A stretch of DNA of 64,000 bases from an uncultured Bacillota bacterium (GCA_946407495.1 CAMJOB010000002.1:6075-70074); one strand, 5' to 3'. Shown: positions 37,683 to 51,846, counted from the stretch's first letter. Numbers and translations: made by a program. Notes: generated by a model from the letters alone, not told the origin.

Positions 37683-38492
37683 TTACTTTTCTGTCCATAC
37701 CGTTACATTATTAATCCATTCTTTCATAGTTTCACTAGATAAATCTATTTCTCCTGGATTATCTTTTAAACTTTCATTTGTTGGAACTGGAATTAATTTT
37801 GCACTATATGTTCTTAAGAATTCTGCTTTCTTTAGTAAGATGTAGTATTCTTCTGGTATAGCAAAGATAATCATTGCTGGTGTACCATTTTCTTTTCCAT
37901 TTTCGAATACTGCATTACCATCAGCATCTCTAACTGCGATTACTTTTACGTTAGATAAGAATTTACCTAACATTACCTTTTCATCTGCATTTTCATCATT
38001 AGTTTGACCACTTGCAGAAACAGTTTCTACTTTCATATAGATATCTATGTAGTTTCCAGGATAAATTGAGTTACCATAAGTTGTTTCAGTTGTAACTGAC
38101 ATATTATATAGAACATATCCTTTTGGATAATCTAAGATAATATTTGCTGGTAATTCTTCTTTTAGAACTACTGTTCTTTCATAGAATAAACTTCCTTTTG
38201 GAATAATTGTATCTGCATTAGCATAATGGTCTACTACTTCACTTAAAGTAGTTAGGACATCTCTATCAATCATAGAAGGAGGAACCTCTGTGGTTCCTAC
38301 CATTCTCTGAGTGATTTGCGTTCCTGCTAAAATGTTTTCTTTTGCATATGGTACTGTTATGGGGTTAATGGAATTCTTTAGTCGCATATTGTAACTAAAT
38401 ATAAGAATACCAATCGCTAATCCAAGACCCAAAATAGTAACGGATGTTTTATTAAATATAAATCGATTGAGTGATAAAATTAATTTCCCCAT
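37683..38492 (-). CDS. CpaB/RcpC-like SAF-domain pilus assembly protein, paralog 3
   Basis: 269 aa. N-terminal TM, SAF-like VPYAKENILAGTQITQRMVGTTEVPPSM. Shares YVLYNMSV.T..TYGNS.YPGNYIDIY.K and LIPVPTNESLK blocks with the paralogs at 42411 and 49472. Confidence 0.65.
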   Translation of the reverse strand: MGKLILSLNRFIFNKTSVTILGLGLAIGILIFSYNMRLKNSINPITVPYAKENILAGTQITQRMVGTTEVPPSMIDRDVLTTLSEVVDHYANADTIIPKGSLFYERTVVLKEELPANIILDYPKGYVLYNMSVTTETTYGNSIYPGNYIDIYMKVETVSASGQTNDENADEKVMLGKFLSNVKVIAVRDADGNAVFENGKENGTPAMIIFAIPEEYYILLKKAEFLRTYSAKLIPVPTNESLKDNPGEIDLSSETMKEWINNVTVWTEK

Positions 38493-38513
38493 TATTTATT
38501 CTTCCCTTCTGCT

Positions 38514-41500
38514 TTATTTTCCAAATCTATTTGCTTGGATAGATACACAAGCTCTTTCTGATTCATTATCATTGTTACATCCAGGTGCTCCAACTTTACG
38601 TACAGCATCTTTTTCATTTAACATTTCGATTAATCCACTGTAGTAAGCATTAACACCACTGATAATTTCATATCTACCTTCAAAATCTGTGTAATTTCCA
38701 CTATTTGATCTACCAGCCTTTTTACCATAATTTCTTATAGCTTTTAATGTATTTGGTGATAACTCAAATGAGTAATCTAGATATGGGTTATCATTTGGTT
38801 TAACATCGTCAGCTTTATCTTCTCCGTAAATACTTACACCTCTTGATTGGATATCTCCTAATACCTTAGTTGGATTATTTACGTAGTTTGTATTGATTGG
38901 AACGATTTGCCCCTTATCATTCTTATTAGTTTTAGCGATTACTTCTGCACCTTCAGACCAGTTGAATCCTGTAATTCTGCTTGGACTCTTAACGTCTGCA
39001 GATGATTCTTGTTCAGTAGTTGGGAATAAGTCATCCTTAGTTACTGTACGAATTACGTAATCATCATTCTTATTTGTTGGATAACAGTTAGAAACTGTTG
39101 AGTTATTTTCACCTTTAATCTTAGTTGTCTTGTATTCTGCAAGTGAGTAGAAACAACGTACATTGAAGTCCCATCCAAAATATCCAAAGTCTGTAATATC
39201 TGCTTTGATATTATATGTATCTGGAGCATTTTGAAGTGTTGTTGATTTACCTTCAATCATATCGTATGTAGTATAGTCTACACATAAGTTTCTTACAACT
39301 TCTTGTCTAGCAGACTTAGCAGATAAGCCACCAGATTGTTGTGAAATGTAATATCTCCAGTAATCTGTATTAACTGGTTTTGCATTTAATGGGATGAAGA
39401 ATTGATTATCAACATAATGCCATCCTTCTCCTGCATTCTTAGTAGTGAATGAAATTTCACCAGATTTATTATTTACCCAAGTACCTGGGAATGAGATTTC
39501 AGCTAAGTAGTTATTTCTCTTTGCTGTATCAGCATAACATCCATCGAAGCATGTTACTACTGAGTTAACACCATTTTCATTCTTCTTAGTATCTGCTGTT
39601 GATAAAGATCTTAAGCAAGATTTTTCATTAGAATTACTATTTCCACCTGGGAATTTTAATGTTCTTGGATTGTTTTCACCTTCTGCTGTATATTGAGCTT
39701 CCATACTATATGATGAAGTCTTTGTAGTACATACAGCTGCAGCTTGACAATCTTTAACTGCTGTATTGTATCTTTCTAGGTTAGCGATATAATCAGCTTC
39801 CATTTTCTTTTGATCTAGGTAAGTATCTGCTGGACAGTTGATGTGTGAACAATCAGAAGCACAATTATCTTCAAACTTAGATGTAGATAATTTCTTGAAT
39901 CCTTCACCGAAGAAGTAGAATCTACCACCATTACGTTTATCTTCCCATGCTTGAATTTCATTGTGATCACAATACCATCTAGCATAACCATATCCATTGT
40001 CTACCCAACGGATTCTTCCATCAGCATAACGGTCATAGTAACCAGCTGCTGAACATAATTGATCTTGAGATACTTTAACTTGTTTTACACTTCCTGTAGT
40101 AGTATTTGTAGTTTGTTTAGTTCCAGTTGTTCCATATACTTTGTTGTAGCAAGATTTACTACATTTTTGAGTATATTTTCCACCATCACATTCTTTAACA
40201 CAAGCATCATAATCATCATTTGGACCACCTTGAGTAAGTCTTACATTATTTCTGTGTACACATACTGGTTGTGGTTGACAGATACCTGGCATTTGTGGAG
40301 CATCTACTTGAACGTTTGCTTCACAACGAACTCTTGAAGTTAATTTAACTTGATATTGAATTGCGAATCCTGCAACAGCTGCTTCAGGAGCACCGTATTC
40401 TACATCAACTGCTTCATAACAAGTTCTTGTACATACTTTCTTAGCTACTGATTCACTTCTGTGGAATTCATCGTAGTTATAAACATATTTTACTGTTACG
40501 TCTTTTACTTCTTTACCGAAGTATGATTTAGTATTTGATTGATCATAAATATAATCTCCAGCTTCGTTCTTTTGACGAACTGAATCATATTTACAACTTA
40601 ATGTTGGTTTAGAGTTTGCTGCATTTGCTGTAGAATTTTCATCATAGTAATGACCTTGTGCTTTAGCTCTTGCAACACTCTTATTGTATCCATCTAGGAA
40701 AGCACTTGTTTCTAGTTTTCCAAGTTCATTTCTTTGAATCTTAGAAATGTTATATGCTTCCATTACATATTTGATAGCTTGTTCAACTTTTGAATCTTCA
40801 TAAACTACTAATGTTTTTTCTTCGAAACAGTATGAGAATAAATCTCTATAGTTTCCATTAGCACCTTCAGCATCCCAAATAGCTGCTAAGTTACCATATT
40901 TACCATTATAATTTTCACCATTACGCATTACTTTACAAATTGTATTGTATTGTGGGTTAGTCTTTTCTTTTGGTCTATTCTTAGAAATATCAATTATTTC
41001 TACATAGATATTATCTTCGAATGTAGCTTTATTTTTATTATTTGAAGCACCGAATGCTGTATAAGACATACACTTATCATCTGTTTCACCATTTGCAACT
41101 TTTAATTGAAGTATTTTTCCTTCGTGAGCTGCATCTGCATTAACACTGATATATGTACTATCTTTAGTAATCTTTCTTCCAATGATATTTTTATCTGCTA
41201 ATGATGAAGCATTTGCATCAGTAACAACAAAATGTCCATCATTCTCGTCAAAATATCCTTCTGAATAACCAGTAATTATTAATGTCTTTTTATTAGTTGT
41301 ATATAATTTTAAGTTACCTCTTGATTGATTTTTATTTAAGTCGTATTGAATATCTACGTTATATTCATTTCTTATAGCTTCATAATTACATGTTTTCTTG
41401 TAATTTTTTCCATCATCTGGAATAGCCATTCCATTCTTAATTGAATTTGTTGTATATACTTGGAATGTTCCACCTTTTTGGAATAATAAGTAAGGAGTAT

Positions 41501-50251: not shown

Positions 50252-50292
50252 ATTTACTATCTCCTTACTATATTAATTATTATATACGATAA

Positions 50293-51846
50293 TTAGAATA
50301 TTTTATAGACATATTTTTTATTTCTTATTACGAAATTGAATGCGAAGCTTTGTGCTTGATTTACTTCTGCTGGTACTTTTACATATAAGTACTTACCATA
50401 ATATGTTCTTGGAATTGGTACTTCTAGTTTAATTTCTTTCTTATTACCATCTTGATCAAAATATGTTATTCTTCCATAGTCTTCAGCAAATTCTTTTAAG
50501 TCTTTTCCTTCAAATGTATCAGAACTAAATAATAACTTCATAATGAAATATCCATCTGGTGCTCTATAAGTTGCTTTACTATTACTACAATTGATTGTTG
50601 AACAAATATTATATACATATTCAGTTTCAGGAAGAATGTCATATTCATCAAATGAAATTTCTTCTTCTTGAGACTTGATTGTAAAGTTCATTGTTTCTCC
50701 TAATTCTTTTGTTCCACAATCTTGAATCTTTGAATAATCTTTTAATTTTAATTTAATCTTTCTTAAGAATTCAGACTCTCCTTCGAACTCTTGGTAATAC
50801 AATACGAAACGATCTTTCTTTAAAGTATTATCTACTTTATAAACCATAATCATTGTAATTGATTCATCACCACGAAGAGTTACACTATCGTGAGTCTTTC
50901 CTAAGTCTTTGAATTCAGTTCCATATAATCTTTCTGTTGTTGTATAGTTACGTATTCCATTCATAATATGGTATCTATCCAAACCTAATGTTCTTGTCTT
51001 TGAATATAAGTTTTTAATAGTTAAATCAATAATTACAAAGCTACTCTTTTTAGATATTTGAGTACCATTATATGATTTATCAGAATAGTAACTATTGTTT
51101 ATTGTTACTTCATAACCATTTATTGTGAATGCAGATCCTTCTTTGTAGGCACGGTGATTAATAATATATTTTGCTGAATTAAAACCTACTATTAGGATTA
51201 CTGCGGTAATAATGATATTACATATAAATTTATGTTCTTGATAGATATAGTTTAAGTTACGTTTAAATTTACGATAATTTCTTTTAATAGCATCTCTATC
51301 TACATTAATATTAATTTCTAATTCTTCTCTATCTCTTGCTTCTAATTCAAGATATTCTTCATCAAACTTGAAATTAAATTTATTTAAGTCGATACCGAAG
51401 ATTCGTATAAAGAAAATTACAAATGTACCAAATTGAGTTAATTGAGATACAAATAATAAATCTCTCCACATTCTTAATGTAGTAGTTGATTGAATACCTG
51501 TATAACTATTGAAATAGTTTTTACTAATTGTAAATGCAAAGAAGATAATAATATATTGAACTACTGGAACTAAATATAGTTTCCATGGTTTTTCTTTTCT
51601 TCTTAATAATCGAATTATTATTGCACAAGAAACAATAAGTACAAGTAAGGCTATTGTACCTAATGGAGTTACATAGTTATTAATTGATTCTGACATATAG
51701 TCATATGAAGCCGTTTGAATAAATTCTCTTAAAAAAGAATAAGTTTGATTTGTTTTGGCATAAATATATATCGCTAATACTAGTAATAATATATGAATCT
51801 TTTTAAAGTTTTTGATTAAAAAGGCATATGGCTTTCTGATAATCAT
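50293..51846 (-). CDS. Polytopic membrane protein with C-terminal extracytoplasmic beta-sandwich-like (DUF4352-like) domain; first gene of the locus
   Basis: 517 aa. About 5 N-terminal TMs, a charged linker, another TM, then SSFVIIDLTIKNLYSKTRTLGLDRYHIMNG, which resembles DUF4352. Confidence 0.4.
   Translation of the reverse strand: MIIRKPYAFLIKNFKKIHILLLVLAIYIYAKTNQTYSFLREFIQTASYDYMSESINNYVTPLGTIALLVLIVSCAIIIRLLRRKEKPWKLYLVPVVQYIIIFFAFTISKNYFNSYTGIQSTTTLRMWRDLLFVSQLTQFGTFVIFFIRIFGIDLNKFNFKFDEEYLELEARDREELEININVDRDAIKRNYRKFKRNLNYIYQEHKFICNIIITAVILIVGFNSAKYIINHRAYKEGSAFTINGYEVTINNSYYSDKSYNGTQISKKSSFVIIDLTIKNLYSKTRTLGLDRYHIMNGIRNYTTTERLYGTEFKDLGKTHDSVTLRGDESITMIMVYKVDNTLKKDRFVLYYQEFEGESEFLRKIKLKLKDYSKIQDCGTKELGETMNFTIKSQEEEISFDEYDILPETEYVYNICSTINCSNSKATYRAPDGYFIMKLLFSSDTFEGKDLKEFAEDYGRITYFDQDGNKKEIKLEVPIPRTYYGKYLYVKVPAEVNQAQSFAFNFVIRNKKYVYKIF

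Follow-up and report, generated by a model that had tools for sequence, protein, structure and literature searches.

A retained triplication of RcpC/CpaB-like genes in a Tad-like locus of an uncultured Bacillota bacterium

As it grows, the filament of a tight adherence (Tad) pilus is encircled by a ring of membrane-anchored RcpC/CpaB protein, located immediately outside the cytoplasmic membrane. It was first shown in 2025 that this ring guides the Tad pilus across the periplasm. The RcpC protein of Pseudomonas aeruginosa is a transmembrane (TM)-anchored dodecameric ring with alternating A and B conformers, and its C-terminal β-hairpin binds the secretin (PMC12307814); CpaB of Caulobacter has the same alignment role (PMC13170226). 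The Kil system of Myxococcus xanthus operates one Tad motor with four alternative tip complexes and a single CpaB homologue, KilB (PMC12075869). Here we describe three CpaB-like genes (CpaB1, CpaB2 and CpaB3) located between positions 37,683 and 51,846 of a 64,000-nucleotide stretch of DNA from an uncultured Bacillota bacterium (GCA_946407495.1, CAMJOB010000002.1:6075-70074), the whole of which is referred to as the window.

A reading of the window made from the sequence alone (the sequence-only reading) had interpreted the three genes as alternative modules feeding one TadABC motor, each tied to its own large protein. Based on fold, copy history, selection and synteny, we lean towards a different explanation, in which a genus-old triplication has been kept and the paralogs are differentiated subunits or rings of one alignment complex, not cargo-specific cassettes. 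The genes are true paralogs of the RcpC/CpaB alignment-complex protein within a Tad-like motor module (TadA, TadB and TadC), itself built into a chromosomal locus that resembles a type IV secretion system (T4SS) and is inherited vertically beside greA.

Fold and family membership of the three proteins

CpaB1 (259 aa; 49472..50251), CpaB2 (270 aa; 42411..43223) and CpaB3 (269 aa; 37683..38492) are encoded on the minus strand at the positions where the sequence-only reading had placed them, and the protein blocks that it had listed as shared (YVLYNMSV, TYGNS.YPGNYIDIY.K, FA.PEE.Y.LLKK.E.L and LIPVPTNESLK) are invariant in an alignment of the three, with pairwise identities of 54-60%. Each protein comprises an N-terminal membrane anchor, recognisable as a single hydrophobic N-terminal stretch in all three sequences, followed by a SAF domain and an RcpC domain; CpaB1 is without the first 7 N-terminal residues of CpaB2 and CpaB3. 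No further copy was found in the assembly, which comprises 1.14 Mb and is 68% complete. An assembly artefact or strain collapse was rejected because the same gene order is present in independent metagenome assemblies.

Membership of the SAF/RcpC-CpaB families was supported by matches that lie below the curated cut-offs: RcpC (PF16976) scores 25.3-28.3 bits (E 2e-6 to 2e-5; cut-off 28.8) across the three proteins and TIGR03177 scores 27-36 bits (cut-off 71), with E-values of 1.8e-6 and 3e-9, respectively, for CpaB1, and the SAF match (PF08666) is also below its cut-off. Many close homologues carry a precomputed PF16976 match, and two sources name them CpaB/RcpC. A sequence profile search of the PDB with the family alignment returned just an insignificant RcpC match (E 0.91), so that a fold search was needed. 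The AlphaFold2 model of CpaB3, based on a 34-sequence alignment (predicted local distance difference test, pLDDT, 83.7), consists of a TM helix at residues 15-42, two β-rich domains and a C-terminal helix. Foldseek matched this model to RcpC chains 9gzr_B (E 8e-11, 198 columns) and 9gzr_A (E 2e-9, 190 columns), chains of 189 and 204 residues that were the sole significant matches in the PDB and that align, over almost their entire length, with both domains, SAF-like D1 and RcpC D2. The next matches were SAF-only proteins (antifreeze, FlgA and NeuB; E 0.02-0.05).

The architecture resembles that of P. aeruginosa RcpC (9gzr; PMC12307814) and Caulobacter CpaB (PMC13170226) in its N-terminal TM anchor, SAF-like D1, RcpC D2, helix-containing linker and TadA/CpaF neighbour, and differs in the low identity (~16%), in the presence of three paralogs instead of one, and in the embedding of the module in a T4SS-like locus. 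Single-copy CpaB genes are located beside TadA in every family locus examined, as is CpaB3 here, co-encoded with TadA and TadB/TadC. Unlike the diderm proteins, in which a C-terminal β-hairpin contacts the secretin RcpA or the bridge CpaI, the CpaB3 model ends with helix 254-263 and six further residues and lacks this hairpin. We take its absence as expected without an outer membrane and secretin, and as a feature that sets the proteins apart from the diderm subgroup, not from the fold family. Because a sortase and a SpoIID-type hydrolase, both markers of a Gram-positive wall, are encoded in the locus, a secretin is not expected, although no secretin search was made. We conclude that the three proteins share the RcpC/CpaB fold and genomic role and form a divergent subgroup in bacteria without an outer membrane.

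The closest described relatives by gene order are SAF or 'cpaB' genes on Bacillaceae plasmids, including Priestia koreensis NZ_CP061869.1 and many plasmids of the Bacillus cereus group. The Priestia SAF protein is a full-length homologue (hhalign probability 99.9, 30% identity), encoded in the order Ig-like large protein, DUF5411, SAF protein, one further gene, CpaF/VirB11 and a gene resembling the F protein of type II secretion systems (T2SS), near a T4SS coupling protein. However, the Bacillaceae gene resides on plasmids and is in essence a single-copy gene (368 places in 363 records), whereas the genes described here are chromosomal, vertically inherited and present in three copies. The 274-aa gene that follows the SAF gene on the Priestia plasmid was considered as a second CpaB and discarded, having no similarity.

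Strand 148-157, helix 214-224 and helix 254-263 of the CpaB3 model may correspond to interface elements of RcpC, judging from where they lie and from the order of the secondary-structure elements; between the paralogs the first two are 60-91% identical and the third 40-70%. Identity is highest in predicted core elements (100% in strand 126-132 and 73-91% in helix 214-224), and the paralogs differ most in the cytoplasmic N-terminal tail (7-36% identity), the TM helix (~40%), loop 158-172 (17-40%) and the last helix. Across the three ortholog groups, 96 alignment columns are identical and conserved, and group-specific fixed differences occur in just 13.

Age, selection and recurrence of the copies

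A family of gut and rumen Bacilli with small genomes has this locus in conserved form, anchored beside greA; homologues are recorded under source names such as 'Bacilli bacterium' and 'Mycoplasmatota bacterium', and metagenome record names suggest that the related contigs come from sheep-rumen and gut samples. In the usual family order, genes for a 517-aa-type membrane protein (TM517), an immunoglobulin (Ig)-like protein, a sortase, a large variable protein (700-1340 aa), DUF5411 and CpaB are followed by TadA, TadB and TadC, and then by genes on to VirB4 and the coupling protein. Taken together with the Priestia plasmid order, this synteny indicates that a single CpaB between DUF5411 and TadA is the ancestral state.

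In a first sample of genomes, at least one CpaB copy was present in every member of the family, and three copies were confined to the genus of the window (g1), with three in G001, G003 and G005, two in G002, where they lie at contig ends, and one in the incomplete G004. That three copies in one locus are unusual, as the sequence-only reading had held, was borne out by a larger sample of 401 genomes across 214 genera: CpaB was detected in 338 of these, nearly always as a single copy, with about 28 genomes encoding two and one (G348) encoding more, as counted by eye from the listing.

A maximum-likelihood tree placed all 14 g1 sequences in one clade (support 94/91) containing CpaB1 (100/100), CpaB2 (100/99) and CpaB3 (95/93) subclades, with CpaB1 and CpaB3 as sisters (99/96). 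The three orthologous subclades imply that two duplications took place before the genus radiated and that the copies have not been homogenised since. The first duplication separated CpaB2 from the CpaB1/CpaB3 lineage and the second CpaB1 from CpaB3. Stem branches measure 0.14+0.28 for CpaB1, 0.24 for CpaB2 and 0.14+0.096 for CpaB3, the copy beside TadA having the shortest. The 25-nt perfect match between CpaB2 and CpaB3 reported from the sequence (37820-37844 and 42557-42581) is real and encodes YILLKKAE. Since this run falls within a conserved peptide block, and identical stretches of 18-20 nt are shared by the other pairs within further conserved blocks, it reflects protein conservation. Recent gene conversion among the paralogs was rejected on the same grounds and because the tree groups orthologs, not paralogs.

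The ratio of nonsynonymous to synonymous substitution rates (dN/dS), which the sequence-only reading had proposed to estimate for all three proteins, was obtained at unsaturated dS for two of them by comparison with a strain encoding a 95% identical CpaB3. It amounts to 0.052 for CpaB2 and 0.057 for CpaB3, compared with 0.02 for TadB and 0.10 and 0.21 for the large proteins Big949 and Big1268 discussed below; dN/dS for CpaB1 derives solely from genus-level comparisons, which are saturated and in which its rate is like that of CpaB2 and CpaB3. All three copies are kept as separate orthologous lineages under strong purifying selection.

Retention of duplicates is not confined to g1. A tree of 86 sequences revealed about a dozen independent CpaB duplications with orthologous pairs kept across species or genera. 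Among 21 two-copy genomes examined, most pairs are tight tandems, 39-144 nt apart, between DUF5411 and TadA. G348 has two loci, one with three tight tandem copies before TadA accompanied by a single 1476-aa gene, and one with two tandem copies. Other arrangements are CpaB - 252 aa - large - DUF5411 - CpaB - TadA in G162 and 269 aa - large - CpaB - 250 aa - large - DUF5411 - CpaB - TadA in G413, the latter (L094, G413:C1, 8380-17994) being a true block duplication with paralog identities of 35% (250-269-aa protein), 26% (large protein) and 54% (CpaB). The genes of this size class that precede large genes in G162 and G413 matched no Pfam family; the G413 protein is secreted, C-terminally anchored and contains Cys. 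In G232 and G387, one CpaB is located before TadA, and a second has remained with DUF5411 at a distance of 19 kb.

In these last two genomes the distant copy belongs to a module of the form X (547 aa) - DUF5411 - CpaB - p150 that lies beyond the coupling protein, where the locus ends (L095/L096 in G232, L097/L098 in G387). One older duplication in the 86-sequence tree is common to four genera, and the order of its copies relative to TadA is swapped between the genus pairs (G346/G170/G134/G322 versus G086/G250/G285/G016).

Transcription units, large proteins and competing explanations

The window region is a single long minus-strand gene array with ~30% G+C, in which a locus of ~25 Tad-like and T4SS-like genes adjoins greA. 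The neighbours named in the sequence-only reading are as it described them, with the 517-aa gene before CpaB1, the 949-aa and 160-aa genes before CpaB2 and the 1268-aa gene before CpaB3. TM517 (50293..51846), a polytopic membrane protein with a weak DUF4352 match, is encoded by the first open reading frame (ORF) of the locus after greA; orthologs lie beside greA in G001, G002, G005, G025, G026 and G030, and in g1 the gene is followed by CpaB1. Ig644 (47393..49327), a 644-aa protein with a bacterial surface Ig-like domain (PF16403, E 1.8e-18), is followed by a 269-aa class-B-like sortase (46575..47384; PF04203 above cut-off, TIGR03064 E 4e-18) that overlaps the start of Big949 (43736..46585), a Cys-rich secreted protein without a Pfam family at the ancestral large-protein position. 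The 160-aa DUF5411 protein (43238..43720; PF17424, E 4e-47), whose gene is the conserved one immediately before CpaB throughout the family and on Bacillaceae plasmids, and CpaB2 come next, and CpaB2 is separated from CpaB3 by Big1268 (38514..42320), a second paralog that is 38% identical to Big949.

Terminators after CpaB1 and CpaB2 had been noted from the sequence and were found again in the related genomes. The hairpin after CpaB1 (49448..49472; AAGACTT/AAGTCTT with a T-run, recovered by RNAfold) is present at the same position in G005, G001 and L053, and that after CpaB2 (42378..42413; AGAAACTT/AAGTTTCT, extendable, with a T8 run) is kept in L047, L055, L051, G005 and G001, such that AT-rich hairpins with T-runs occur at the same places in every congener examined. 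A consensus terminator scanner called none on the minus strand because it demands at least 3 G-C pairs and these hairpins are AT-rich. A promoter-like site before Ig644 (49390..49417; TTGACT-16-TAAAAT with an upstream TG) is conserved in congeners as TTGACT-N16/17-TAAAAT, and a promoter with the ribosome-binding site (RBS) AGAAGGGAAGAATAA before CpaB3 is conserved in G001, G005 and L051, a relative with 71% identical CpaB3.

The sequence-only reading did not hold for CpaB3 in making each CpaB the last gene of its unit, since this gene ends 18 nt before TadA with no hairpin between them. CpaB likewise runs into TadA in single-copy genera, across a gap of 33-42 nt and without a hairpin. On these signals, the genus is predicted to have three units, namely TM517-CpaB1, Ig644-sortase-Big949-DUF5411-CpaB2 and [second large gene]-CpaB3-TadABC, and CpaB3 would open the motor operon instead of closing a cassette. 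G001, G005 and L051 retain a CpaB3 promoter (TTGACA...TGCTAAAAT) that the window lineage lacks (window 38493-38516 versus L051 9930-10000); in that lineage, the stop codon of Big1268 is followed by the RBS alone, and transcription of CpaB3 and the motor genes probably continues from the promoter of Big1268.

Big949 evolves fast, its orthologs being just 35-49% identical within the genus, and between the strains with 95% identical CpaB3 Big1268 evolves faster than Big949 (77% versus 92% identity). The second large gene is present between CpaB2 and CpaB3 in the window species (L047-L049; 1268 aa), in L055 (1266 aa), a relative with 79% identical CpaB3, and in L051 (1049 aa), and is absent from G001/L053 and G005, where CpaB2 and CpaB3 form a tandem 148-170 nt apart, and, by spacing, from G003. 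Proteins at the second position group in their own clade (support 99), which lies in a polytomy within the clade of the genus. In the spacers of the tandem pairs in G001 and G005, one segment is homologous to the promoter region that lies before the second large gene. This segment would agree with an ancestral block [large-(DUF5411)-CpaB] that later lost its large gene, and equally with an insertion of the large gene between two promoters already in place; the alignment of the spacers fits a deletion scar without proving one. With either history, CpaB3 persists under constraint without a second large gene.

The numbers of large-protein and CpaB genes are 2 (each with DUF5411) and 1 in G021, 1 and 3 at the G348 locus on C52, 1 and 3 in G001 and G005, 2 and 3 in the window genome, and 2 and 2 in G413, from which it follows that the two are uncoupled. 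The pairing with large genes envisaged by the sequence-only reading thus survives in part: large protein-DUF5411-CpaB is an ancient synteny, and G413 duplicated such a block, but copy numbers vary separately. The large upstream genes are neighbours by ancestral synteny and by block or gene duplication, not obligate private partners. The G021 locus (L030, G021:C27, ~3600-9250), with two consecutive pairs of a large protein (830 and 800 aa) and DUF5411 before its single CpaB, is a case in which the adhesin/DUF5411 pair was duplicated without CpaB.

The claim that each CpaB acts as the dedicated envelope module of one large surface protein or tip, with alternative cassettes served by one TadABC motor, draws on several of these observations. 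The copies lie in separate transcription units with conserved terminators, their divergence falls mainly on the N-terminal tail, the TM helix and a surface loop, all places at which specificity for a partner might lie, two [250-aa protein - large protein - CpaB] blocks are present in G413 through block duplication, the relocated DUF5411 module of G232 and G387 has its own CpaB, 19 kb from the copy with TadA, and the promoter-like spacer segment of G001 and G005 is compatible with a secondary loss of the second large gene. Myxococcus Kil, in which one motor is combined with several Cys-rich tip assemblies, comes closest as a precedent, both for the idea itself and for the two Cys-rich large paralogs (PMC12075869). 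However, the alternatives in that system are minor-pilin tip complexes that share a single KilB, the alignment protein not being multiplied (PMC12075869). Furthermore, CpaB3 is kept under constraint in G001, G005 and G003 without the 1268-aa gene with which it had been paired, single-CpaB genomes have the same partner set (TM517, Ig-like, sortase, large protein and DUF5411), and most multi-copy genomes combine tandem CpaB genes with one large gene, three with one in G348, whereas G021 has two large-protein/DUF5411 pairs and one CpaB. We therefore regard dedicated modules as unlikely. To see paralog-specific clients in the large, fast-evolving surface proteins is a tempting misreading, and one that affects how this Tad-like/T4SS locus would be dissected. 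We give somewhat less credence still to functionally equivalent copies, kept for dosage or so that every transcription unit supplies its own ring protein. Such equivalence would agree with the 96 columns identical in all ortholog groups against 13 with group-specific fixed differences, and with the similar rates of the copies, but less well with a protein divergence of 40-46%, three stable orthologous lineages free of homogenisation, and stems that are longer for CpaB1 and CpaB2 than for CpaB3, suggesting divergence after duplication. Simple redundancy is unlikely because a genome of ~1.1-1.5 Mb would hardly keep redundant copies through a radiation, and retention recurs in about a dozen lineages. 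It is very improbable that the proteins are SAF-domain proteins unrelated to pilus alignment, such as FlgA-like or sporulation YqfC-like proteins. Weak secondary matches to flgA_cterm and spore_yqfC and the SAF-only PDB matches point in that direction, but the two-domain RcpC match is at least 8 orders of magnitude better, and the gene is directly adjacent to a TadA-type ATPase in all sampled genomes, as it is on plasmids, whose records name it cpaB.

We consider it most likely that the paralogs act in one machine, since CpaB/RcpC is ring-forming and the duplicates are mostly co-transcribed before the same motor. In this explanation of differentiated parts of one alignment complex, they would be non-equivalent subunits of a hetero-oligomeric ring, or would build differentiated rings, for which the two alternating conformers of the P. 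aeruginosa RcpC dodecamer offer a possible model. Co-assembly is consistent with the finding that core elements (strand 126-132 and helix 214-224) are best conserved between paralogs. Several points weigh on the other side. The Pfam and TIGRFAM scores are under curated cut-offs, and ring formation and co-assembly are what we infer from homology and gene order. Independent expression would be possible as well, the three genes being in separate transcription units. Convergent layouts in some lineages hint at module-linked roles, with a CpaB copy upstream of the adhesin block in g1, G162 and G413, a copy retained by the DUF5411 module that moved by 19 kb in G232 and G387, and CpaB included in the block duplicated in G413. 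Moreover, three paralogs do not map simply onto a two-conformer dodecamer.

A tentative extension, possible though less probable than a shared machine as such, is that a homo-oligomeric CpaB ring repeatedly became an obligate hetero-oligomer, with two-paralog rings in many genera and three-paralog rings in g1, each paralog being fixed in one non-equivalent ring position, much like the alternating A and B conformers of RcpC, or in one of several stacked rings across the wall. If so, this would be the first heteromeric CpaB/RcpC complex, and the family would provide independent natural replicates of a symmetric ring turning heteromeric, in a secretin-less Tad-like motor coupled to a T4SS. About a dozen duplicate-and-keep events, with up to three copies in g1, point to a ring whose subunits are able to specialise.

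Other genes of the locus

Downstream of CpaB3 are a TadA/CpaF/VirB11-type ATPase with a Pro/Gln-rich C-terminal tail (36312..37667, minus strand as for all features here; PF00437 E 1e-28, TIGR02788 and TIGR03819) and the TadB-like (300 aa) and TadC-like (269 aa) platform proteins (34584..36295), which are 82-91% conserved in congeners. The latter two had no Pfam match in the scan of window proteins, and the positional homologue that the Priestia plasmid carries bears the annotation 'type II secretion system F family protein'. In full, the minus-strand order from 5' to 3' is greA, TM517, CpaB1, Ig644, sortase, Big949, DUF5411, CpaB2, Big1268, CpaB3, TadA-type ATPase, TadB-like, TadC-like, a 67-aa pilin-like ORF, a 150-aa protein, TadZ-like, VirB2-like pilins, TrbL/VirB6-like, a split VirB4, the SpoIID-type hydrolase and a VirD4-type coupling protein. 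The AlphaFold2 model of DUF5411 (pLDDT 71.5) has a pilin-like topology, with a long N-terminal helix and a 3-stranded sheet; Foldseek against the PDB gave nothing for this model at E below 0.04.

The locus departs from a canonical Tad (type IVc/Flp) pilus locus in its pilin and peptidase. The sequence of the 67-aa pilin-like ORF (34313-34516) starts with MKAATGELQL, in which Glu follows Gly immediately and there is no EY, and thus does not match the Flp motif G/XXXXEY, and no prepilin peptidase family (TadV/CpaA) was detected among the locus proteins scanned. A Peptidase_A24 (prepilin peptidase) match elsewhere in the genome (G000:C3:26391-26714; 48 bits, above cut-off) means that the pilin-like proteins of the locus could be processed in trans. 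The genome also has two further weak T2SSE-type ATPase matches (G000:C49:3-218 and G000:C18:12055-12411), one of them, located at the end of a contig, sharing 49% identity with TadA across 70 residues; given these matches and the incomplete assembly, the 'one TadABC motor' of the sequence-only reading cannot be asserted.

Individual congeners depart from the common layout in minor ways. In L053, TadA is called as two ORFs of 225 and 197 aa (10822-12092) in an otherwise intact locus, which suggests a frameshift or sequencing error. G002 (L022, G002:C3, 12310-14023) has no Ig-like 644-aa gene, the sortase following CpaB1 directly, and carries two extra genes (211 and 338 aa) between greA and TM517.

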